Part shown: one piece after another, positions 1 to 31,242 of the stretch
Position numbering within the stretch: position 1 is the first letter of the stretch
Layout of the letters: each line of letters begins with the position of its first letter
Origin: a virus
Strand: one strand, 5' to 3'
DNA length: 31,242 nt
IMG/VR virus record: IMGVR_UViG_3300035698_015968
Translations under genes and position numbers: made by a program
The notes under the pieces: generated by a model
Told to the model about the DNA's origin: nothing
What the model saw: the letters and a program-made list of their open reading frames with translations, nothing else
Database searches by the model: none

Positions 1-124
1 CTGTTTCAATAGGAGCACCACAAGAAGCAGCTCCGTTTAATCAGCCGCAAGAGGCAGGCCCTATTGGTCAGCCGCAAGAGGCAGGTCCTATTGGTCAGCC
101 GCAAGAGGCAGGTCCTATTGGTCA
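1..124. repeat. Terminal overlap: 1-124 is identical to 31119-31242 (contig circularisation)
   Basis: Base-by-base comparison of both ends. The overlap includes 38 bp of unique sequence (ctgtttcaataggagcaccacaagaagcagctccgttt) before the tandem repeat, so it is not only repeat slippage. Confidence 0.95.
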
Positions 125-3555: not shown

Positions 3556-4398
3556 ATGCTTATGCCATTTATAAAAAAATGTTGTCATTGTAAAGAGGAA
3601 TTTAGTAGCAAGTCTTCATTTGCAAAGCTCTGTTCACGAGAGTGCCATAATAAGCATATGTATATTGAACGCATTGAGAAAAAATGTAATCAGTGTAATA
3701 AGAAATACTTTGTAGAGGTTCGTCTAAAATCATCAAAATTTTGTTCTAACAAATGTAGTAGTGATTTTATAAAGCAACCAAAGTTAAAAAAAAAGTGCCT
3801 ATTATGCGGGACTATTTATTTAGTAGCTAAAAGGCATTATGAAAGTTCTAAGTTTTGCTCAAATTCATGTAAATGCTCTACAGCTGGTAAGAAATCATCT
3901 CAAAAGATACATAAAAAATGGGAGCAAGAAACCCATCAAGAGACAAAAGCTATAATGAAAGAAGCATTTGAAAAGTTCTTTGATAAAACGGATGGATGTT
4001 GGGAATGGAAAGGAGGTAAAAAAAATTATGGCAAGAAGTTGCCTTATGGGTCTTTCTCTTTTAGAGATAAAAGAACTAATATAGCCCATCGCATAAGTTA
4101 TGAATTATATCGAGGACTAATTCCAAAAGGATTAATAGTAATGCATATCTGTGATAACCCTCCATGTGTTAATCCTGATCATCTTAAGGTGGGTACTTAT
4201 CTTGACAATCAAAAAGATAAAGTGCGAAAGGGAAGGGGCAAAGTTGAAAAACTTTCTGAAGAAGAGGTTAAAGAGATACTATCTAGGTTTAAGATGGGAG
4301 TAAAGGGCTGTAGAATAGCTAAAGACTTTGGAATCAGTCAGAGTACTGCTTCATCAATAAAACATAGAAAATTATGGGCCTGGGTTAAAATAGATTAA
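3556..4398 (+). CDS. Free-standing HNH (HNH_3-type) homing endonuclease with three N-terminal Cys4 zinc modules and a C-terminal HTH
   Basis: HICDNPPCVNPDHLKVGT...N motif. There are three repeats of KKCxxC-x(12-15)-(F/L)CSxxC. The C-terminal GCRIAKDFGISQSTASSI is HTH-like. Confidence 0.75.
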   Translation: MLMPFIKKCCHCKEEFSSKSSFAKLCSRECHNKHMYIERIEKKCNQCNKKYFVEVRLKSSKFCSNKCSSDFIKQPKLKKKCLLCGTIYLVAKRHYESSKFCSNSCKCSTAGKKSSQKIHKKWEQETHQETKAIMKEAFEKFFDKTDGCWEWKGGKKNYGKKLPYGSFSFRDKRTNIAHRISYELYRGLIPKGLIVMHICDNPPCVNPDHLKVGTYLDNQKDKVRKGRGKVEKLSEEEVKEILSRFKMGVKGCRIAKDFGISQSTASSIKHRKLWAWVKID

Positions 4399-4492
4399 TT
4401 GAGGAAATTTATACATAGTTTTTGTATGCTTTCTATAGAAATAAAGAGAATATTTTAATGAATTCAGCTTTATAAAAAAAGAAAGAAGAGTA

Positions 4493-4828
4493 ATGCCAAC
4501 AACAAAAAGGATTATTCCGCTTGCGCTAAAATCATTTGATACAACTTCATTGTCAGCAAGCTTCCAGGTAGTAGATGCAGTAGGATTTATATACCCTGTT
4601 TCTATTTTAAAATTTATTAATGAATCTGATACCGATGGGACTGTTAGTTTTGATGGTATTACAAGTCATGACTTTGTCTTATCAGATAGTCAGACAGAGA
4701 TTAATTTTTCTGCTCTTCTTGGGTCTACTGCTCGTGGAGCTCAAATTGCTAAAAAAACAAAGATATATATTAAAGGCTCTATGGGTACAGGACTCTTTTA
4801 TGTAGTAGCATATACCCAATTACCATAG
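4493..4828 (+). CDS. Hypothetical structural-module protein (111 aa), paralogue of 4839-5177
   Basis: Shared pattern ...SFDG..(S/D)H..L......(T)(K/R)IY(I/V)K......G.FYV.A with the next ORF. It lies within the fibre cluster. Confidence 0.6.
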   Translation: MPTTKRIIPLALKSFDTTSLSASFQVVDAVGFIYPVSILKFINESDTDGTVSFDGITSHDFVLSDSQTEINFSALLGSTARGAQIAKKTKIYIKGSMGTGLFYVVAYTQLP

Positions 4829-4838
4829 GAGAGTAGAA

Positions 4839-5177
4839 ATGAGTTTATCAATTCGTCTCGTCCCAGAGACAGTTAAAGAGTTAGCTTTTGGGTCTATTGG
4901 TGCTGGTTATGCGGGAGTAGGGACTGCATTTGATAAACCTATTCGCCTCATTATTTTTCAGAACTTAACAGATGTTTCCGTTATGATTTCGTTTGACGGA
5001 GTTGATGATCATATACCTTTAGTTACGAGTGGCTACCTAGTTCTTGATATAACGGCTAATAAGACGATAGCTAATGGTTTCTATATTGCTGAAGGAACAC
5101 GTATATATGTAAAACAACTTGCTGGGGCTGCAGGCTCTGGTAGTTTTTATGTATCAGCATTCGGAGGTGCATCATGA
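4839..5177 (+). CDS. Hypothetical structural-module protein (112 aa), paralogue of 4493-4828
   Basis: SD GGAGAG upstream. ATGA overlap with the following fibre gene suggests translational coupling. Confidence 0.6.
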   Translation: MSLSIRLVPETVKELAFGSIGAGYAGVGTAFDKPIRLIIFQNLTDVSVMISFDGVDDHIPLVTSGYLVLDITANKTIANGFYIAEGTRIYVKQLAGAAGSGSFYVSAFGGAS

Positions 5178-6904
5178 GCCAAATAGGAAGTACTGCAGCT
5201 GGTGGCGGAGGTGGCGCTGTAAATAGTGTTACGGGTGGAACTGGTATCAATACGAGTGGAACTGCAGCTGATCCAGTTGTTAATCTTGATGTTCCTATCA
5301 TCATTTCTCATGGTGGAACTAATGCTATTACAATGGCAACAACATATGGTGTTAACTATTTTGATGGAACTAGTATAGTTACGACGGCTGTTGGTAATGC
5401 CGGTGAGGTACTAACATCCGGAGGAATTGGTGTCGCTCCTACGTTTCAAGCTGGTGGATCCACAATAGATATTACTGGTGATAGTGGTGGTGCCCTAACG
5501 GGAACATCATTTACCTTTACTGGTGGAACTACAGGTATTACTTTTGCTGGAGCAGGAACAACTGAAACACTTACAGGTACTCTTGTAGTTGCTAATGGCG
5601 GAACCGGAGCTACTGCGTTAACACAATACAATGTATTGATAGGTAACAATGTTTCTGCTATTACAACAGTAGCTCCTTCTGCAACCAGTGGTGTTCCTTT
5701 GATTTCACAAGGCGCAGCAGCTGATCCAGCATTTGGAACAGCAGTAGTTGCGGGTGGTGGATCTGGACGAACCACAGCAACAGCATATGCAGTAATTTGT
5801 GGTGGAACTACAACAACAGCAGCACATCAGTCAATAGCATCTGTAGGTACATCTGGTCAGCTATTAACCTCTAATGGTGCTGGTGCTCTTCCAACATTTC
5901 AGACTGCTGGGTCAGCTTCTATTTCTATAACGGGTGATAGTGGTGGGGCTTTAGTTGCCTCTGCATTTACCTTTACTGGTGGAACTACGGGACTTACTTT
6001 TGCTGGTGCCGGAACAACTGAAACGATTACAGGAACTCTTGTAGTTGCTAATGGTGGTACTGGTCTTACTTCATTCACGCAGGGTGATATAATTTATTCT
6101 TCAGCAGCAAACACATTGAGTGCACTTGCTAAGAATGCTTCTTCGACTCGTTATCTTTCTAATACCGGAGCATCTAATAATCCTGCATGGGCTCAGATTG
6201 CACTAGCAACAGGTGTTAGTGGAACTCTTCCAGTTGCCAATGGTGGTACGAGCTCTACTTCGTTAACACAATATAATGTATTAATTGGTAATAATACTTC
6301 TGCTATTGCAACAGTAGCTCCTTCTGCAACAAGTGGTGTTCCTTTGATTTCACAAGGCGCAGCAGTCAATCCAGCATTTGGCACCGCTGTAGTTGCAGGT
6401 GGTGGATCTGGACGAACTACAGCAACAGCATATGCAGTAATTTGTGGTGGAACTACAACAACGGCAGCGCATCAATCAATTGCATCTGTTGGTACGAGCG
6501 GACAAATATTAACCTCTAATGGAGCTGGCGCTCTTCCAACGTTTCAAGCAGCTGGTGGTGGTGGTGGTGGACTTACCTGGGCAGTTACAACGGTTAATGC
6601 GACATTGGTTGTTGCAAATGGCTATATAGCTAATAAAGCAGGTCTTTTGACAATGACATTGCCATCTACAGCTGCTATTGGAGATATAATTGAGTTAACT
6701 AATATCAATACTGCTGTGGGGTGGAGAATTGCACAGAATGCTCTACAAGCAATACGATTTGGTAGTTCACTTACAACAATAGGAGTTGGTGGGTACCTAG
6801 AAGCTACTGCACTGGGCGACTCAGTAAGAATGGTCTGCACAGTCTCTGGAACATCTACTCGGTGGCTTATATTGTCTAGTTTAGGAAACATAACCATCGT
6901 ATAA
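5174..6904 (+). CDS. Tail fibre protein (576 aa) with large internal repeats and a distinct C-terminal domain
   Basis: SD GGAGGTG upstream. Repeated modules ITGDSGGAL..FTFTGGTTG.TFAGAGTTE..TGTLVVANGGTG and VG(T)SGQ.LTSNGAGALPTFQ. The N-proximal VNSVTGGTGINTSGTAADPVVNLD module is shared with ORF 8549. Confidence 0.75.
   Translation: MSQIGSTAAGGGGGAVNSVTGGTGINTSGTAADPVVNLDVPIIISHGGTNAITMATTYGVNYFDGTSIVTTAVGNAGEVLTSGGIGVAPTFQAGGSTIDITGDSGGALTGTSFTFTGGTTGITFAGAGTTETLTGTLVVANGGTGATALTQYNVLIGNNVSAITTVAPSATSGVPLISQGAAADPAFGTAVVAGGGSGRTTATAYAVICGGTTTTAAHQSIASVGTSGQLLTSNGAGALPTFQTAGSASISITGDSGGALVASAFTFTGGTTGLTFAGAGTTETITGTLVVANGGTGLTSFTQGDIIYSSAANTLSALAKNASSTRYLSNTGASNNPAWAQIALATGVSGTLPVANGGTSSTSLTQYNVLIGNNTSAIATVAPSATSGVPLISQGAAVNPAFGTAVVAGGGSGRTTATAYAVICGGTTTTAAHQSIASVGTSGQILTSNGAGALPTFQAAGGGGGGLTWAVTTVNATLVVANGYIANKAGLLTMTLPSTAAIGDIIELTNINTAVGWRIAQNALQAIRFGSSLTTIGVGGYLEATALGDSVRMVCTVSGTSTRWLILSSLGNITIV
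5621..6547 (+). repeat. Near-identical ~280-bp intragenic direct repeats (5621-5902 and 6266-6547); a second pair at 5471-5608 / 5927-6073
   Basis: By eye roughly 85-90% identical, with perfect runs of over 30-40 bp (for example acagcaacagcatatgcagtaatttgtggtggaactacaacaac). Confidence 0.9.
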
Positions 6905-6913
6905 GGAGTAATA

Positions 6914-7573
6914 ATGGCTACAAAAAACAGTATAGATAACACTTCTAATCCACTAGCTTCAACAGCTGTTACGATCGATCCTGGAGCTTCTGGTGATAGC
7001 TTTGTTCAGTTTGATATCAATGCTACTGGAGAGTTTCGCATTGGAGTTGATGATGATGCTAGTGATGCATTTAAGATCTCTCAAGGGTCAGCATTGGGAA
7101 CTAATGATACTTATTCTATTAGCTCTGATGGAAATGTTATTAAGCCTCAAAATAGTTGTTTTGGTGCTTATGCTGCTGATCAAGCTAATATAACTGGGTC
7201 AGGAACCGTCTATTCAGTAACATTCACAGGAGGAGAATTTTTTGATCAAGGAGGTGATTTTGCATCGTCTACGTTTACAGCGCCAGTAACTGGTATTTAT
7301 TTATTAACTACTTCTATTAGAGCAACAGGTTTTACCACATCCCATAACACATATCAACTAAGAATAACAACAACGGCGACCAACTTTATTGCTAATTTTA
7401 TTGATCCTGGTAATGTATTTGATGTTAATACAGACTATGGATCACAATTAGCTATAATTACTGATATGACTGCTGCTGATGTTGCAAACGTGTATCTATA
7501 TACAGCAAATGGAACCAAGGTTGTTGATATTACTGGAGCTAATTCTTATTTTAGTGGATGTTTAATTAGTTAG
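6914..7573 (+). CDS. Fibre-tip protein with a C-terminal C1q/TNF-like globular domain (about 7154-7570)
   Basis: SD AAGGAG upstream. The motifs CFGAYAA..., FDQGGDF..STFTAPVTGIYLLT... and the terminal SYFSGCLIS* match gC1q hallmarks (AFSA..., G.FT.P.PG.YYF, S.FSGFLL). Confidence 0.7.
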   Translation: MATKNSIDNTSNPLASTAVTIDPGASGDSFVQFDINATGEFRIGVDDDASDAFKISQGSALGTNDTYSISSDGNVIKPQNSCFGAYAADQANITGSGTVYSVTFTGGEFFDQGGDFASSTFTAPVTGIYLLTTSIRATGFTTSHNTYQLRITTTATNFIANFIDPGNVFDVNTDYGSQLAIITDMTAADVANVYLYTANGTKVVDITGANSYFSGCLIS

Positions 7574-7580
7574 GATTATT

Positions 7581-8222
7581 ATGGCCACTAAAAATTCTAT
7601 AAACAATATAAGTAATCCTTTATCCTCTTCTGCTATTACCGTTGATCCAGGTGCATCAGGAGATTCTTATATTGATTTTGATATTAATACTACACAAGAG
7701 TTTAGAATGGGCGTTGATGACACTGATAGTGACTCATTCAAACTTGCACCTTCCGCTTTAGGAACCGGAGATTTATGGAAAATAACATCTGGTGGTAATG
7801 TTACTCATCCTCTTTCTTCTGCAGTCCTGGCGCAAAATTCTTCTCAGAATAATGTAACGGGGGATGGAACAGACTATACTATGCCATTTGTGACAGAATT
7901 AATAGATCAAAATGGAAATTTTTCTTCTCCAACATTTACTGCGCCTATTACAGGAATATATTATTTTTGTGGGTATTTAAATACAAGGTATTCTAATTCT
8001 ACCTCTACTATAGTAGACCTCGTAACAACTGCACGTACTTATTCATGCGCTTATCAAAGTCCATTAAAAGCAAGAGATGTATCTCTTGCTGTAGCGGGAA
8101 GGTTTAATTTTTTAGCCGATATGACTGCAAGTGATACAGCAACTTTTCATATTACTAATAGTGGAGGAACTAAAATTACTGATGTGACTAGTGGTACTAT
8201 TTCTGTAGCGCTTTTATCTTAA
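7581..8222 (+). CDS. Second, diverged C1q/TNF-like fibre-tip paralogue (C1q-like part about 7815-8219)
   Basis: The N-terminal ~75 aa are close to those of 6914 (MATKNSI(D/N)N.SNPL.S.A(V/I)T(I/V)DPGASGDS..(F)DIN...EFR(I/M)GVDD). The C-terminus carries IDQNGNFSSPTFTAPITGIYYFCGY. Confidence 0.65.
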   Translation: MATKNSINNISNPLSSSAITVDPGASGDSYIDFDINTTQEFRMGVDDTDSDSFKLAPSALGTGDLWKITSGGNVTHPLSSAVLAQNSSQNNVTGDGTDYTMPFVTELIDQNGNFSSPTFTAPITGIYYFCGYLNTRYSNSTSTIVDLVTTARTYSCAYQSPLKARDVSLAVAGRFNFLADMTASDTATFHITNSGGTKITDVTSGTISVALLS

Positions 8223-8236
8223 CAAAAAGGAAAAAA

Positions 8237-8530
8237 ATGAAAATTTCTGTTAATAATATTAAACTTTTTACTCTTTCTGAAATACAAAAGAAGGTTATGG
8301 CCAATGAAATTAGATCAGAGATATTTGATGCAGATCTCAAACGTCGATTGAAATGGGTATTAATGCATAAATACGAACAATGCTTTGATAAACTAAAGAA
8401 AGAGTGGATGCCAAAGCTTGAAGTGAATGGTGTTAAATCTATTCCTCTTGATAAAGATGCTTTAGCTGAGCTTATTTTTGCACAGCCAAACTATAAGAAC
8501 AGATCAAAACGTGAATTAGAAGTAAAATAA
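8237..8530 (+). CDS. Hypothetical protein (97 aa) inside the fibre cluster; a fibre chaperone/assembly role is possible by position only
   Basis: SD AAGGAA upstream. Compact ORF between fibre genes. No motif recognised. Confidence 0.5.
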   Translation: MKISVNNIKLFTLSEIQKKVMANEIRSEIFDADLKRRLKWVLMHKYEQCFDKLKKEWMPKLEVNGVKSIPLDKDALAELIFAQPNYKNRSKRELEVK

Positions 8531-8548
8531 GAAATTGAGGAGTTTAGT

Positions 8549-9874
8549 ATGGCATTATACAGAGATGGACGGAATGCATCAGCATATCTTGGGGTAAGAG
8601 CTGCTACTCCTCCTCAATTTGAGAAGCATCCTCGAGCACCAACTGCTAATGATTATAGAAACTTTAATGTAAGTACTATCTGGCTAGATACAAGCAACTT
8701 AGACTTAATTCCTTCTGTTGCACCAACTTCAGATGATATTTATATACTTGTATCTAAAAGTAATAATGTTGCTTCATGGATTAATTTTGGTGATGGTAAT
8801 GTAAATAGTGTAAGTGGCGGAACAAATATCAATATCACTGGTACAGCAACTGATCCTATAGTTAATCTTGATGGTGGTACACCAAATACTGTTGCTGTTT
8901 ATAGTGGAACAGGATCACTTTCCGAGGTAAGTTCTGTTGGGACCAATGGTCAAGTTCTTACTGCGAATACTGGGGCCGCTCCAACATGGCAAGCTGCTAC
9001 AGTAGGGGTTGTTACGAGTATTACTGGAGGAACAAACATAAATGTAACTGGTACTGCTGCTATTCCTATTGTTAATCTCGATGCTGCAATTTCATTAGCA
9101 ACTTCAGTGACGAGTCCTCTATATACTGTAGCAAGCGGTGATCTAGTACTTAACATGGCAGATGATGCGGGAACTGATTCAGTATCATTCACAAATGATT
9201 CAGATGCTGAAGTAGCGTCAATAAACAGTCTTGGTGCAGCGACATTCACCAATCTTGATGTAGACAACATAAACATCAATGGTAACACTATTATATCTAC
9301 CGATACTAATGGAGATATAACATTAACACCCGATGGTACTGGTAGTGTTAATATTGATTATGCCACACCAAATACCGTTGCTGTTTACGGAACCTCAGGA
9401 GCTCTTTCTGAAGTAAGTTCGGTTGGAACAAATGGCCAGGTGCTAACCGCGAATACTGGTGCTGCGCCTACGTGGCAGGCTGCGTCAAGTGGTGGAGGTT
9501 CTAGCATTATGGGGAAGGCATTTGAAACTCTAAATACTGTTGGCTCTATTAGATATGCTACTGTATTTGAACCTTCACCATCAGGCTCAAACGAAGGTGC
9601 TCATCAAATCCCTATGTCTCAAAGTGGTACTCTAGATAATTTCTATGTTCAGCTTGGTAATAATTCTTCAACAAATGATGTTGATTATACGGTTAGACTT
9701 GATGGAGTTAACACAACTTTGATTGTAACAACAACTGCTTTAACCTTTGGTCAATTCTCTAATACAGTAGATTCTGTAGCTGTTACAGAAGGTGAACTTT
9801 TGTCTATTTCTATAGAAGCTGGTGTCACAGGATTTCAAGAAGGTGCATTTTCTATGAGATTTACAGCAAGTTAG
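8549..9874 (+). CDS. Tail fibre protein (441 aa)
   Basis: SD GAGGAG upstream. Internal duplication TPNTVAVY...LSEVSSVGTNGQVLTANTGAAPTWQAA (about 8879-9000 versus about 9365-9485). GGTNIN(I/V)TGTA..PIVNLD occurs twice. The N-terminal RAPTAND...STIWLDTS motif is shared with ORF 1875. Confidence 0.7.
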   Translation: MALYRDGRNASAYLGVRAATPPQFEKHPRAPTANDYRNFNVSTIWLDTSNLDLIPSVAPTSDDIYILVSKSNNVASWINFGDGNVNSVSGGTNINITGTATDPIVNLDGGTPNTVAVYSGTGSLSEVSSVGTNGQVLTANTGAAPTWQAATVGVVTSITGGTNINVTGTAAIPIVNLDAAISLATSVTSPLYTVASGDLVLNMADDAGTDSVSFTNDSDAEVASINSLGAATFTNLDVDNININGNTIISTDTNGDITLTPDGTGSVNIDYATPNTVAVYGTSGALSEVSSVGTNGQVLTANTGAAPTWQAASSGGGSSIMGKAFETLNTVGSIRYATVFEPSPSGSNEGAHQIPMSQSGTLDNFYVQLGNNSSTNDVDYTVRLDGVNTTLIVTTTALTFGQFSNTVDSVAVTEGELLSISIEAGVTGFQEGAFSMRFTAS

Positions 9875-9875
9875 C

Positions 9876-9910
9876 CAGAAGGGCGCTTTGAATTCTCAGA
9901 AGGGCGCTTT
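9876..9910. repeat. Two perfect 15-bp direct repeats cagaagggcgctttg (9876-9890, 9896-9910), 20-bp period, GC-rich
   Basis: Read directly. They lie in the 101-bp gap between the convergent fibre gene and integrase gene. Confidence 0.9.
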
Positions 9911-9975
9911 GTGATAGTGCCTATTCAAATTTACTTGAATAAGAGTGTATTTTTATAGTAGTTATTACGTTTAAC

Positions 9976-10986
9976 TTAAATAAAGTTTATCTTTTTAGAT
10001 ATATTCTCTTCGTCACTAGTCTTATCATATGCCATAACCATTGTGTTGTTTCTGTGACCAGTTACTTGCATGATTTGTGAGTCGCTTGCTCCTTGATTGC
10101 GAACAAGTGTTACCCAGGTGGCACGTAGAACATGAGGAGTTACTTTAATTTTAATGTTAGCTCTCTCTCCTGCTTTTTTAAATGCATAATTAAGCTGGAA
10201 TCGTGTTACCATTTTTCCGGTTCTTGTAATAAAAACAAAAGGTGAGTCTTTTCGTATATCAATTGTTTCTGTTATATACATTTTAAGTTCTTCCATAAAA
10301 GACAATGGAAATGTAATGGGTATTTCACGAAATGTTCCGCATGACTTTGACTGTCTATAGCGAATAATATTTTTTCCCCAATCTATTTGAGAAAGTTTAA
10401 TGCTAATGACTTCTGTTATTCTTTTGGCCCCATGAAATGCTGATCGAGCTATCAATGAGTCTCTTGTATTAATATCTGACAACTCAGAAATGAACTTATA
10501 CCATTCTGCTAAGGTTAAAGCATTGGTTGCACATTTTTCTCGTACTTTATAAAACGTTGGATTTGACCTGAGCCTTGATGGTTCTACTTTTCTGACCCAT
10601 CCTTGGCTTATTCGGGATAAGTAGGATGTGAGTGATATATATACTGCTGCATGCAATTGTCGAGTACCTTCTGACCATTCTTTAATGCTTTTTATGTAAT
10701 CAAGAACTAGCTCATGAGGGATAAGTCTAAAGTGTCCCACTGTAAAAGGATTTCCTAAAGCATCTTTCTCAGGGATGATATTACGTCGTATCATATCGGT
10801 TACATAATAAGAATAGTTTCGTCTCGTTTCAGGAGAAAGATTCTTTAGCCAATTATGCAGTACTGATTTAATAGAAGAGTTCTCAAGCTTTTCGATAAAG
10901 GCATAAGAATTGTGCTTAAACAAATCTTGTGATGCTAAGGAATGTTCTGATGGATTATATTTATTTAAAATGGGAATATCCTGCAT
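9976..10986 (-). CDS. int: Tyrosine recombinase / phage integrase
   Basis: Catalytic-domain pattern: GAKRITEV (Arg), HVLRAT (H-x-x-R), GH, and the MAYDK tyrosine near the C-terminus. The N-terminal SAM-like region contains RRNYSYYV. Confidence 0.85.
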   Translation of the reverse strand: MQDIPILNKYNPSEHSLASQDLFKHNSYAFIEKLENSSIKSVLHNWLKNLSPETRRNYSYYVTDMIRRNIIPEKDALGNPFTVGHFRLIPHELVLDYIKSIKEWSEGTRQLHAAVYISLTSYLSRISQGWVRKVEPSRLRSNPTFYKVREKCATNALTLAEWYKFISELSDINTRDSLIARSAFHGAKRITEVISIKLSQIDWGKNIIRYRQSKSCGTFREIPITFPLSFMEELKMYITETIDIRKDSPFVFITRTGKMVTRFQLNYAFKKAGERANIKIKVTPHVLRATWVTLVRNQGASDSQIMQVTGHRNNTMVMAYDKTSDEENISKKINFI

Positions 10987-22890: not shown

Positions 22891-23838
22891 ATGCCTGTTA
22901 CGACTACGAGTTTGTTGCCGGCTCCAGTACAACAAAGTTTTAGTTATAAACTGTTGTCTGTTCCTGTACCAAACATGATCCATAAAATACCTGCGATGAA
23001 GAAAGCTATGCCAAGGAATGGCGGACGTACATTACGTATGCGTCGTTATAATCCTTTGCCGAGTGCTCTTGTTCCTCTTGGAAACACAGGAATTACACCT
23101 CCTTCAGTTGCTTTATCTGCAATAGATATTGATGCTCGCATTGATTTCTACGGGCAGTACATTCAATTGAATGAGCAAGTTACTTTGCAAAACCAAGATC
23201 CAGTTCTAAATGAAGCAGCGGCTCGTTTAGGTGTTTCTCTTCGTCAAACTGAAGATGAGCTTACACGTAATATGCTTGCTAGTACTGCAGCATTTATTAA
23301 CTGTGTTGGTGGAGTAAACGGAGATAACCCAACTGAAATTACTCGTTTTGATGTGAATGAAGTTGTGCGTACTCTTCTTGATAATGATGCTTACACCATC
23401 ATGGACAATATTGAGGGTGAAGATAAATTTGGAACAGCTCCAGTTCGTGATGCATATTTTGCATTAGGATCTACTCAGCTTACTGGTGATCTTGATAACG
23501 TTGCTGGTTTTATCCATAAAAATCAATATCCATCACCTATGGATGCTTTGCGTTCAGAGTGGGGAGCTATTGGTAACCTTCGTTTCCTTGTTTCTTCTAT
23601 TGGTTCTGTTTCTCCTAATGCTTCTGTGTTAGACAATAATGTATATAACGTTTTCTGTGTTGGTATGGAAGCGTATGCATGTATAGAACAAGATGGATAC
23701 AGCTCAACATTTATTTATAGACCACCTATATATGATGGACCGTTAGCACTTAATGCCTCTGTTGGTTATAAGTTTGCTGAAGTTCCTCGTATTACGAATG
23801 ATCTATGGGTAATTAATATGCGTTGCACAAGATCTTAA
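22891..23838 (+). CDS. Major capsid protein, HK97 fold, N4-gp56-like family
   Basis: SD AAGGA upstream. KKAMPRNGGRTLRMRRYNPLPSALVPLGNTGITPP...IDFYGQYIQLNEQV matches the typical lp.n.G.t..frRy..l....L.EG.tP....YG pattern of this capsid family. Confidence 0.8.
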   Translation: MPVTTTSLLPAPVQQSFSYKLLSVPVPNMIHKIPAMKKAMPRNGGRTLRMRRYNPLPSALVPLGNTGITPPSVALSAIDIDARIDFYGQYIQLNEQVTLQNQDPVLNEAAARLGVSLRQTEDELTRNMLASTAAFINCVGGVNGDNPTEITRFDVNEVVRTLLDNDAYTIMDNIEGEDKFGTAPVRDAYFALGSTQLTGDLDNVAGFIHKNQYPSPMDALRSEWGAIGNLRFLVSSIGSVSPNASVLDNNVYNVFCVGMEAYACIEQDGYSSTFIYRPPIYDGPLALNASVGYKFAEVPRITNDLWVINMRCTRS

Positions 23839-26418: not shown

Positions 26419-27039
26419 ATGGCATATCAAGAAAATATACCTCAGTCGAGTGATGCATTAAGCTCATCACAGCCAGACTTATTGGGAAACTTTCAGGCTT
26501 TAAAAGTGTTAATTGATATTAATCATGGAACATTTGGTTCATCCGACGAGGGAAAGCATAAGTTTGTTACTTTTCCAGTGCAATCAAGTGCTCCTGCATT
26601 TTTAGCAACAGAAAATGGACTGTATAATCTCGTTCCTACTGCATCTCCTCAAACAGCAATACAAGAACTTTTTATTCATAAGCAAAGTAATGCTGGTGTA
26701 AAAGAAATTCCATTTACTGCTTCTATATTGAGTACTTCTACACCAGCAGCACTTTCAAGTGGATGGACATATCTTCCTTCAGGTTTAATTCTTAAGTGGG
26801 GTGCTAATGTTAATGCCACTGGGCAAACAACTATTACTTTTCCTGCATCAGCTAATATTCCTGTGTTTTCTGTATGTTTAAATGTTCAAGCAACTATTGC
26901 TGATAGTGGCGTTGGTGATCAAGACTCATCGATACGGGTAACAGCTGTAGGGCCAACTACATTTAATGTATTTGGATCTCCAAGAACTACAACGGGAAAT
27001 AAGCTTGTTGTCTTTGGTTATATAGCTATAGGATACTAA
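26419..27039 (+). CDS. Tail fibre-like/receptor-binding-like protein (206 aa)
   Basis: SD AAGGA upstream. N-terminal NFQALKVLIDINHGTF....GKHKFVTF and C-terminal SGWTYLPSGLILKWG...TITFP..ANIPVFSV resemble the short-fibre 'gp53-like' C-terminal beta-sandwich pattern. Confidence 0.45.
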   Translation: MAYQENIPQSSDALSSSQPDLLGNFQALKVLIDINHGTFGSSDEGKHKFVTFPVQSSAPAFLATENGLYNLVPTASPQTAIQELFIHKQSNAGVKEIPFTASILSTSTPAALSSGWTYLPSGLILKWGANVNATGQTTITFPASANIPVFSVCLNVQATIADSGVGDQDSSIRVTAVGPTTFNVFGSPRTTTGNKLVVFGYIAIGY

Positions 27040-30733: not shown

Positions 30734-31242
30734 ATGGCTATACCAGTCATTCAAGAATCATCTTTCGGTGGAAATATTGGGTCTGCACTTGGCGGTGGAC
30801 TTGGTCAAGCATTACAATATTTGGCACAGGATCGTATTAGAGAAAAAATGGAGCAAAAACAAATAGGGAAACGAGGTCAAGCGCTTCAAGCACTTAAGCT
30901 TCTCAGTCCTCAATCATTTGGCAATCTTAATGAAGAACAAATGGGACAGTTTGCTCAACTTCCTGAACAATCTTTTAATATTGCTTTAAAGCAGTTGTTA
31001 CAACAGCCATTATTTAATGCAGGAGGAATATCTCCTGAAGATGCCCAAATGCAAAAATTAGCTGAGCAGAAAATTATAAATGATATTCTCTATCCCAATA
31101 ATTCTGTGCCACAAGAACCTGTTTCAATAGGAGCACCACAAGAAGCAGCTCCGTTTAATCAGCCGCAAGAGGCAGGCCCTATTGGTCAGCCGCAAGAGGC
31201 AGGTCCTATTGGTCAGCCGCAAGAGGCAGGTCCTATTGGTCA
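30734..31242 (+). CDS. 5' part of the junction-spanning ORF (continues at base 3)
   Basis: ATG at 30734 with SD AAGGA upstream. The frame is open to the window end and the N-terminus is MAIPVIQESSFGGNIGSALGGGLGQ... It is not in the track because it has no in-window stop. Confidence 0.6.
   Translation, partial: MAIPVIQESSFGGNIGSALGGGLGQALQYLAQDRIREKMEQKQIGKRGQALQALKLLSPQSFGNLNEEQMGQFAQLPEQSFNIALKQLLQQPLFNAGGISPEDAQMQKLAEQKIINDILYPNNSVPQEPVSIGAPQEAAPFNQPQEAGPIGQPQEAGPIGQPQEAGPIG

Follow-up and report, generated by a model that had tools for sequence, protein, structure and literature searches.

The virus record IMGVR_UViG_3300035698_015968 of IMG/VR, a stretch of 31,242 nucleotides that is called the window below, carries two tandem open reading frames (ORFs), ORF A and ORF B, within a cluster of phage fibre genes. 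Their products are probably two short paralogous tail-fibre proteins, or mini-fibres, of a temperate phage that present separate binding specificities on a shared scaffold. Sequence comparison and structure prediction together confirm a gC1q-type jelly-roll in the C-terminal ~140 amino acids (aa) of both proteins. Established here are the paralogy of the two genes, their domain boundaries, the predicted fold, C1q homology via relatives, the position of the head at the end of the chain, the occurrence of the neck-and-head unit as a fusion with true fibres and the location in the cluster. A function at the fibre tip is plausible and agrees with the published interpretation of phage C1q proteins.

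Both genes were found exactly where the original prediction, a reading of the sequence made without database searches, had placed a tandem pair of diverged C1q/TNF-like proteins (Table 1), and their products are 46% identical over 207 aa in BLASTP (E 9e-57). A Shine-Dalgarno-like ribosome-binding signal lies 5 nt ahead of each start codon and overlaps the preceding stop codon: AAGGAG at 6903-6908 for ORF A, at the end of the upstream fibre gene F1, and AGGA for ORF B, at the end of ORF A. The expected combination of a conserved N-terminal part with more diverged heads was borne out, as identity amounts to 65.4% for residues 1-78, 34.0% for residues 79-219 and 26% for the last 87 aa. The same pattern recurs in 16 genomes with at least two tandem copies, in which paralogues show a median identity of 72.5% in the N-terminal module (N-module) and 42.9% in the head. 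Because the heads are 34% identical while the necks reach 65%, two binding specificities on one scaffold are suggested, and the two heads probably provide alternative or additive host-binding specificities. Across the family, the majority fraction is 0.83 for aa 20-79 (the neck) and 0.28-0.6 over most of the head. The N-terminus, MATxNSINN, is conserved, with M1, N5 and N9 at 90% or more in the family, and overlaps the start of the shaft repeat as seen inside long proteins. The closest relatives, on contigs of 33-42 kb, have one to three tandem short genes of the ORF A/B type at the same position, and the exact ORF A protein was recovered on 23 read contigs, in 33 collection blocks.

Assignment of the heads to the C1q family proceeds through relatives. 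ORF A has 551 homologues, nearly all 210-230 aa long, and both ORFs match PHROG 15750, a family of 'unknown function'. A precomputed match to the Pfam C1q model (PF00386) is present on 22 of the 120 best homologues, and 32 of 61 aligned family members match Pfam C1q at E<=0.01 (best 3.5e-12), while three of the 61 match Pfam BclA_C. The closest 50%-cluster representative, P0023, is ~47% identical to ORF A over the full length and 80% identical in the N-module. It scores 25.9 bits against PF00386, above the curated gathering score of 23.7 bits, and its residues 82-220 cover model positions 1-126 of 127; this span matches ORF A aa 79-219. In addition, a profile of the family matches the gC1q domain of EMILIN-1 (E 0.0037) and cerebellin-1. 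The Pfam search that had been proposed as a check of the original prediction was thus successful for the family, including P0023, whereas of the two ORFs searched singly one had no match and the other a sub-threshold match, as detailed below. The motifs quoted in that prediction (CFGAYAA, FDQGGDF..STFTAPVTGIYLLT, IDQNGNFSSPTFTAPITGIYYF and the terminal SYFSGCLIS*) are all present and in order, and profile alignments place them on the matching gC1q strands, with 'stftAPvtGrY' corresponding to 'STFIAPRKGIYSF' in cerebellin-1 and 'GVFTAPLAGRYLLS' in EMILIN-1.

Structure predictions with AlphaFold2 (AF2) and fold searches with Foldseek point to the same domain. The predicted local distance difference test (pLDDT) values of ORF A are 82-98 over aa 80-219, mostly above 90, and ten strands lie between aa 82 and 217; for the ORF B head the values are 79-95. 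Among structures in the PDB, the top 50 matches of ORF A are almost all gC1q domains (E 5e-7 to 9e-6, TM-score TMt 0.64-0.77), including C1QL1-3, Cbln1/4, Caprin-2, CTRP5, C1q A/B/C, adiponectin and the NC1 domain of collagen X. Among these are C1QL1 (4d7y, E 5e-7, TMt 0.75) and collagen X NC1 (1gr3, TMt 0.77), and lower ranks are occupied by TNF ligands and the spike knob of phage phi812. For ORF B, C1QL3 (4qqo, E 4e-7, TMt 0.74) and C1QL1 lead the list at TMt 0.70-0.74, and a chain of the cyanophage A4 portal-tail complex is also included. Overall, the top gC1q fold matches to the predicted structures of both ORFs have E-values of 4e-7 to 1e-5 at a probability of 1.00. The comparison with gC1q/TNF structures that had been suggested therefore places gC1q domains first for both proteins, and both a C1q/TNF profile match (in the family) and a jelly-roll fold (in the monomer models) were obtained.

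The head is also the end of the chain. Hidden Markov models (HMMs) of the N-module and of the head were built and run on the six-frame ORFs of 80 IMG/VR loci. Among the IMG/VR loci, 132 of 134 head domain matches end within 15 aa of the end of the ORF, with a median distance of 0. Head-bearing ORFs in the 80 loci range from ~160 to ~1000 aa, and the N-module usually stands directly before the head; two to three copies occur in long ORFs (L028, L032, L077), and modules without a head are found in L028 (5551-6687) and L035 (12556-14370).

A wider view of the N-module came from phmmer, run exhaustively on 1.84 billion representatives with ORF A aa 1-80 as the query; it superseded a word-index search that had retrieved 4 fragments only with the 65-aa N-module. 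The phmmer run yielded 801 representative proteins. A set of 148 proteins, comprising the listed phmmer matches not already seen and a few earlier fragments, was classified by architecture: 72 are short, with one module and a head, 23 are long and combine one to at least four modules with a head, and 46 are long with two to eight modules and no head, the longest having 5013 aa. Fibre proteins with this shaft repeat thus span 400-5013 aa, contain two to eight copies and often lack the C1q head. For example, P0126 (1331 aa) has eight modules together with an intramolecular chaperone of the Peptidase_S74 family, and its matches include PHROG tail-fibre families; P0127 has six modules and then a head, and P0132 and P0142 match 'central tail fiber J' and tail-spike PHROGs. 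In P0121 (840 aa), the module and head come after a long N-terminal body whose sequence has the character of a beta-helix tailspike, and P0139 likewise bears the neck and head at the C-terminus of a long fibre or tailspike protein. This fusion behind long fibre or tailspike bodies is the best evidence that the unit of neck and head is a distal fibre end, and a fibre tip with diverged specificities, as had been suggested, is plausible given the fusions in P0121, P0127 and P0139, the terminal position of the head and the fibre-gene surroundings.

The original prediction had regarded the conserved N-terminal part as a common attachment domain, a view that has to be revised. Since the module is repeated in long fibres, with or without a head, its sequence distribution identifies it as a structural neck/shaft unit of ~65 aa rather than a dedicated attachment domain. 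No Pfam or NCBIfam model matches this repeat, and no solved structure matches it by sequence; in ORF A, its AF2 pLDDT as a monomer is only 54-69. The beta-rich repeat that precedes the head contains no Gly-X-Y run, so that the classical C1q/collagen stalk is absent, and such a collagen-like stalk is not required for the C1q domain family.

In the proposed arrangement, each chain would consist of a short conserved N-terminus, one ~65-aa beta-rich shaft repeat as a neck and a gC1q-type jelly-roll head, and three chains would assemble around a three-fold axis, by analogy with characterised gC1q/TNF domains and phage fibres. Within the family, conservation extends over the neck and over those short loops that are predicted to lie at the jelly-roll base (B-C 'APVT', F-G and D-E). 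Variation is found in strands C-F and in the long loops, and indels cluster in the loops G-H and B'-B. The head would rest on the neck by its conserved base, with its variable outer strands and long distal loops turned towards the host, where they would bind a ligand on the cell surface, probably a glycan or an envelope protein. Both heads would be displayed alongside the larger fibres F1 and F2, which are encoded on either side. In the B'-B region, an E-x-F-D-Q motif has an invariant Asp and a nearly invariant Gln; speculatively, these residues could form a metal or axis contact. We infer incorporation into the virion, an anchoring site, receptor binding and a ligand for ORF A and ORF B, as well as, by analogy, a trimeric state.

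Several points weigh against this model. At the level of the individual proteins, ORF A has no Pfam C1q match at E<=1, and the match of ORF B (residues 90-165, E 0.0056, 17.3 bits) stays below the cutoff; the C1q membership of both proteins is argued from transitive homology and predicted structure. The AF2 structures are predicted monomers, and oligomers were not modelled. The assignment of loops to the base or apex of the head would follow the canonical gC1q topology and is not taken from coordinates. The portal and capsid proteins of the phage are at most 26% identical to any counterpart in GenBank or cultured phages. Finally, neither an anchor domain in ORF A or ORF B nor a T4 gp10-like branching domain in a partner protein was found, which leaves the virion attachment of a 219-aa protein with one repeat unexplained.

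F1, ORF A, ORF B, a 97-aa ORF and F2 follow one another in the same orientation with gaps of 8-19 nt (Table 1). This cluster forms the end of the structural module, and related phages keep the same order. NCBIfam gave nothing informative for any protein of the fibre cluster, its sole match being a spurious, sub-threshold one in P0126. An internal direct repeat in F1 (5576-5901 and 6221-6546, 87% nucleotide identity, 645 bp apart) duplicates a shaft segment of ~215 aa. The C-terminal domain of F1 ends 44 ORFs in 25 related loci and could be a receptor-binding head of its own or a partner of the mini-fibres. The possibility that it is another C1q head was rejected, as hhalign against the family returned a probability of 0.15%. 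F1 and ORF A lie in one reading frame, separated by a single TAA and 9 nt (6902-6916), and a fusion by stop-codon read-through was likewise rejected, given the strong Shine-Dalgarno (SD) sequence and conserved Met start of ORF A; the in-frame, single-stop layout occurs in about 5 of about 20 related loci, no more than the third expected by chance. The 97-aa ORF has no match in Pfam, PHROG or NCBIfam; its product is probably helical and could be a fibre assembly factor.

F2 illustrates how heads may be exchanged. Its N-terminal ~180 aa are common to one to three tandem fibres with swapped C-terminal heads in related phages (e.g. L016 12781-16884 and L030 7977-12101), and some of these heads are C1q-like, with C-domain HMM matches in L016, L030, L007 and L012; the F2 head of the window itself has no match with the C1q-head HMM. 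Taken together, the short tandem genes and the F2-type fibres with swapped heads give this phage group several fibre proteins whose heads are interchangeable.

Table 1. Position of ORF A, ORF B, their domains and neighbouring genes in the window.
Feature	Position	Strand	Evidence or remark
ORF A, 219 aa, one shaft/neck repeat and C1q-like head	6914-7573	+	ORF listing, 551 homologues
ORF A aa 1-78, shaft/neck repeat after short conserved N-terminus	6914-7147	+	65% identical to ORF B
ORF A aa 79-219, predicted gC1q-type ten-strand head	7148-7570	+	AF2, Foldseek, family Pfam C1q, phrog_15750
ORF B, 213 aa, ORF A paralogue of the same architecture	7581-8222	+	BLASTP vs ORF A
ORF B aa 1-77, same shaft/neck repeat	7581-7811	+	N-module HMM E 8e-29
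ORF B aa 78-213, predicted gC1q-type head, 34% identical to ORF A head	7812-8219	+	Pfam, AF2, Foldseek
F1, 576-aa Gly/Thr-rich repetitive fibre protein	5174-6904	+	Sequence, internal repeat; directly upstream of ORF A
F1 C-terminal domain, 118 aa	6548-6901	+	Separate conserved domain
Lys-rich 97-aa ORF	8237-8530	+	Between ORF B and F2
F2, 441-aa second fibre protein	8549-9874	+	phmmer vs related loci, C-domain HMM
Integrase gene	9976-10986	-	Opposite strand to fibre cluster, after F2

A branched fibre, in which ORF A and ORF B would serve as secondary receptor-binding proteins (RBPs) and, instead of binding the tail directly, dock by their conserved N-terminus onto F1 or F2 as the primary fibre, is possible though somewhat unlikely. 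The principle of a docking peptide and a branching domain has been shown experimentally in podoviruses (PMC13352976), and the conservation of the extreme N-terminus described above, in proteins with no recognisable anchor domain, would suit it. However, these N-terminal residues belong for the most part to the shaft repeat, whose matches begin at positions 3-15, and no T4 gp10-like XD2/XD3 domain was detected in F1, F2 or the other scanned proteins of the window using Pfam, NCBIfam and the PDB. The C-terminal domain of F1 has one match in the PDB, a marginal one (E 0.013) to the start of XD1 of CBA120 TSP4, a region described as a spacer or glycan-binding fold and not as a docking surface. The gene order also lends itself to such docking: of the 25 loci with the F1 domain, 23 have it at the end of a gene that is immediately followed by a C1q-head gene, and the overlap of the ORF A SD sequence with the F1 stop codon may couple translation. 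Yet shared ancestry may account for this synteny, and in about 40 other loci for which upstream sequence was available, C1q-head genes occur with no F1-type C-terminal domain, which makes the linkage lineage-specific. A further candidate anchoring partner was noted elsewhere in the window: a 206-aa protein (26419-27039) with the Pfam Gp53-like_C 'putative tail fiber protein' domain (E 5.5e-11).

More generally, it is clearly unlikely that the two paralogues do not form independent fibres, be it through mixed A/B heads or through one-repeat mini-fibres plugged onto the tip of the upstream fibre, as a branched receptor-binding complex with swappable parts and without a gp10-like branching domain. 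The first of these forms, co-assembly of the tandem paralogues into one mixed gC1q head with a single asymmetric binding surface, has a precedent, as paralogous chains form heterotrimeric heads in collagen VIII and in complement C1q, whose A, B and C chains are tandemly encoded. The two to three tandem copies in related genomes have necks that are more similar within a genome (median 72.5%) than between genomes (58%), which would fit co-assembling chains. The heads, however, are likewise more similar within a genome, and a recent duplication explains this; higher within-genome identity is compatible with recent duplication, gene conversion or co-assembly alike. Moreover, copy number varies from one to three among close relatives, with a single gene in L010 and L013, so that no fixed stoichiometry is conserved, and the neck and head also occur as a single-gene fusion on long fibres, which must be homotrimers. 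A mixed head is therefore improbable.

It is quite improbable that the same parts build capsid-decorating head fibres or another adhesin of the virion surface. Short trimeric fibres can decorate capsids in other phages, and nothing physically ties the ORF A and ORF B proteins to the tail. Against this stands their position: both genes are located between two fibre genes in the distal structural module, and the fibre cluster is ~8-10 kb away from the capsid gene (22891-23838) on the circular map. Homologous units are, in addition, fused to proteins that match tail-fibre/tailspike PHROGs and an S74 chaperone. A role as tail-fibre assembly chaperone, or as a non-structural lysogenic-conversion ('moron') protein next to the integrase, would fit two small genes that immediately follow a fibre gene and have the integrase gene ~1.8 kb away, but is highly improbable, as no chaperone or adhesin family was matched in Pfam, PHROGs or NCBIfam, the shaft repeat and terminal jelly-roll follow the architecture of structural fibres, strand and tight spacing are shared with the fibre genes, a scan of 4300-10100 found promoter and terminator sites no more frequently than in shuffled sequence, and the N-terminal sequence, MATKNSIDNTSNPL, shows no evident signal peptide.

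Independent mini-fibres with separate specificities thus remain the preferred interpretation, and the genome that encodes them is that of a temperate phage. The ends of the window (1-124 and 31119-31242) are identical over 124 bp, which indicates a circular assembly and a complete genome of ~31.1 kb. Genes for a large terminase, a portal protein, a major head protein and virion structural proteins are present, and a temperate lifestyle follows from the integrase and ERF recombinase that are also encoded. The nearest portal matches include phages of the KPP25 and Bcep22 types, which we take to be podoviruses, and a record annotated as 'P22 like portal protein'. Since the ORF listing holds no ORF of tape-measure size, the virion is likely podovirus-like. 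No tRNA genes were found in the genome. The tail module further contains an HNH homing-endonuclease gene (3556-4398; Pfam HNH_3 E 8e-11, C-terminal helix-turn-helix), placed between the fibre genes and a 538-aa protein with a weak DUF2345 match.

The same genome, 99.9-100% identical, is present in at least six other metagenome assemblies in ENA; six other contigs bearing ORF A are 99.9-100% identical across the region and consequently uninformative on hypervariable sites. No relatives of ORF A were found in 185,579 species-representative genomes. A portal search of contigs from metagenome-assembled genomes (MAGs) gave three matches only, from close relatives of the phage (L087, L088 and L089; 56-67% identical, contigs of 6-39 kb), two of which are on contigs of phage-genome size. 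Their MAG labels, Babeliales, Gemmatimonadales and Nitrosopumilaceae, are mutually incompatible and point to mis-binned phage contigs, and the labels were rejected as hosts.

The original prediction had also considered C1q-type heads uncommon among phage RBPs, which does not hold for uncultured phages. IMG/VR contains at least 387 confirmed relative loci, from at least 599 pattern matches, and dozens of the matches in a fold search of BFVD were viral proteins that already bear the name 'C1q domain containing protein', from uncultured Caudovirales as well as from Synechococcus phages S-SRM01 and ACG-2014j and cyanophage SS120-1. The L-shaped tail fibre of a Xanthomonas phage and a haloarchaeal virus virion component were also retrieved, and the best BFVD match, A0A1B1IWU6, spans both neck and head (E 1e-20, 34% identity). 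Among GenBank phages, tblastn with ORF A found nothing, and the P0023 query matched only Synechococcus phage S-SRM01 (E 2e-5) and, marginally, a Limnohabitans phage. C1q heads are thus abundant in uncultured phages and rare only among cultured GenBank phages. On an unlikely reading of this abundance, phages could be a reservoir, or even the source, of the C1q/TNF head. C1q-domain genes adjoining tail fibres in pelagiphage-like contigs were proposed as RBPs with a conserved N-terminus and a hypervariable C1q part (Mizuno et al., 2014; PMC3909814), and the RBP interpretation was repeated for a Mu-like phage (Bellas et al., 2020; PMC7468147). The two proteins of the window add to this known class, with phage C1q RBP candidates in the literature since 2014, and do not represent a new category.

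The pair is a clean and sharply bounded case of small uncultured phages assembling their host-recognition proteins from two parts that can be reused, a shaft repeat and a C1q-type head, and allows PHROG 15750 to be annotated as a C1q-like fibre tip. The heads are short and probably self-assembling, which makes them attractive as probes for unknown hosts in environmental samples and for glycan binding. The main interest lies in the minimal architecture, in a shaft repeat without a Pfam or NCBIfam model and in the use of the heads as host probes; otherwise this is a modest and ordinary find.

Among known systems, the C1q RBPs of uncultured marine and cryoconite phages are the most similar in layout: they likewise have a C-terminal head, a gene beside a tail fibre, a conserved N-terminal part and a variable C1q part. 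The published proteins are read as host-recognition proteins and, as ORF A and ORF B, are candidates only. They belong to other lineages, namely HTVC010P-like pelagiphage contigs and the Mu-like phage, from which the phage of the window is separate (at most 26% identity to cultured phages), and in comparison with them ORF A and ORF B are minimal, with one shaft repeat, and tandemly duplicated. The dual or branched RBP systems of podoviruses and Ackermannviridae, e.g. KP32 gp37/gp38, G7C gp66/gp63.1 and CBA120 TSP1-4, likewise have several consecutive RBP genes. The secondary RBPs of such branched systems have a short N-terminus and rely on a conserved N-terminal peptide, as in KP32 gp38, which docks via this peptide onto the branching domain of gp37 (PMC13352976); the tailspike proteins of CBA120 dock onto TSP4. 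In contrast to the C1q-like, lectin-type heads of the window phage, in which no gp10-like domain was found, the KP32, G7C and CBA120 systems combine enzymatic beta-helices with gp10-like branching.

Outside phages, the metazoan gC1q proteins (C1QL1-3, cerebellin-1, Caprin-2, adiponectin, the NC1 domains of collagen X/VIII and complement C1q) likewise end in a C-terminal ten-strand jelly-roll and have the motifs F-x-A-P-x-x-G-x-Y and, at the C-terminus, F-x-G-x-L in common with the phage family. Identity to the phage heads is only 13-23%, and the metazoan head follows a collagen Gly-X-Y stalk, where ORF A and ORF B have a beta-rich phage shaft repeat. Bacterial C1q/TNF-like trimeric heads are represented by BclA, BxpB and ExsF of the Bacillus exosporium, of which BxpB and ExsF are among the fold matches; these are spore-surface proteins, BclA being mounted on a collagen-like stalk, and they rank below the metazoan gC1q matches. 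In the eBAP2 group of tail fibres from extracellular contractile injection systems (eCIS), phage-tail-derived fibres are capped by a target-binding C1q domain, and short 'mini-fibres' are included (PMC12923769). The eCIS C1q fibres are anchored via eBAP baseplate-attachment domains on contractile particles that target eukaryotic or other cells. Finally, the mosaic adhesive trimer (MAT) fibre tips Bd2439 and Bd2734 of Bdellovibrio are trimeric and TNF/C1q-like, and one tip binds N-acetylglucosamine (GlcNAc) between protomers (PMC10769870). Although these fibres are ~1000-aa proteins of a bacterial predator and resemble ORF A and ORF B at the level of the fold only, the GlcNAc-binding tip provides a working model for ligand binding by a C1q-like head.

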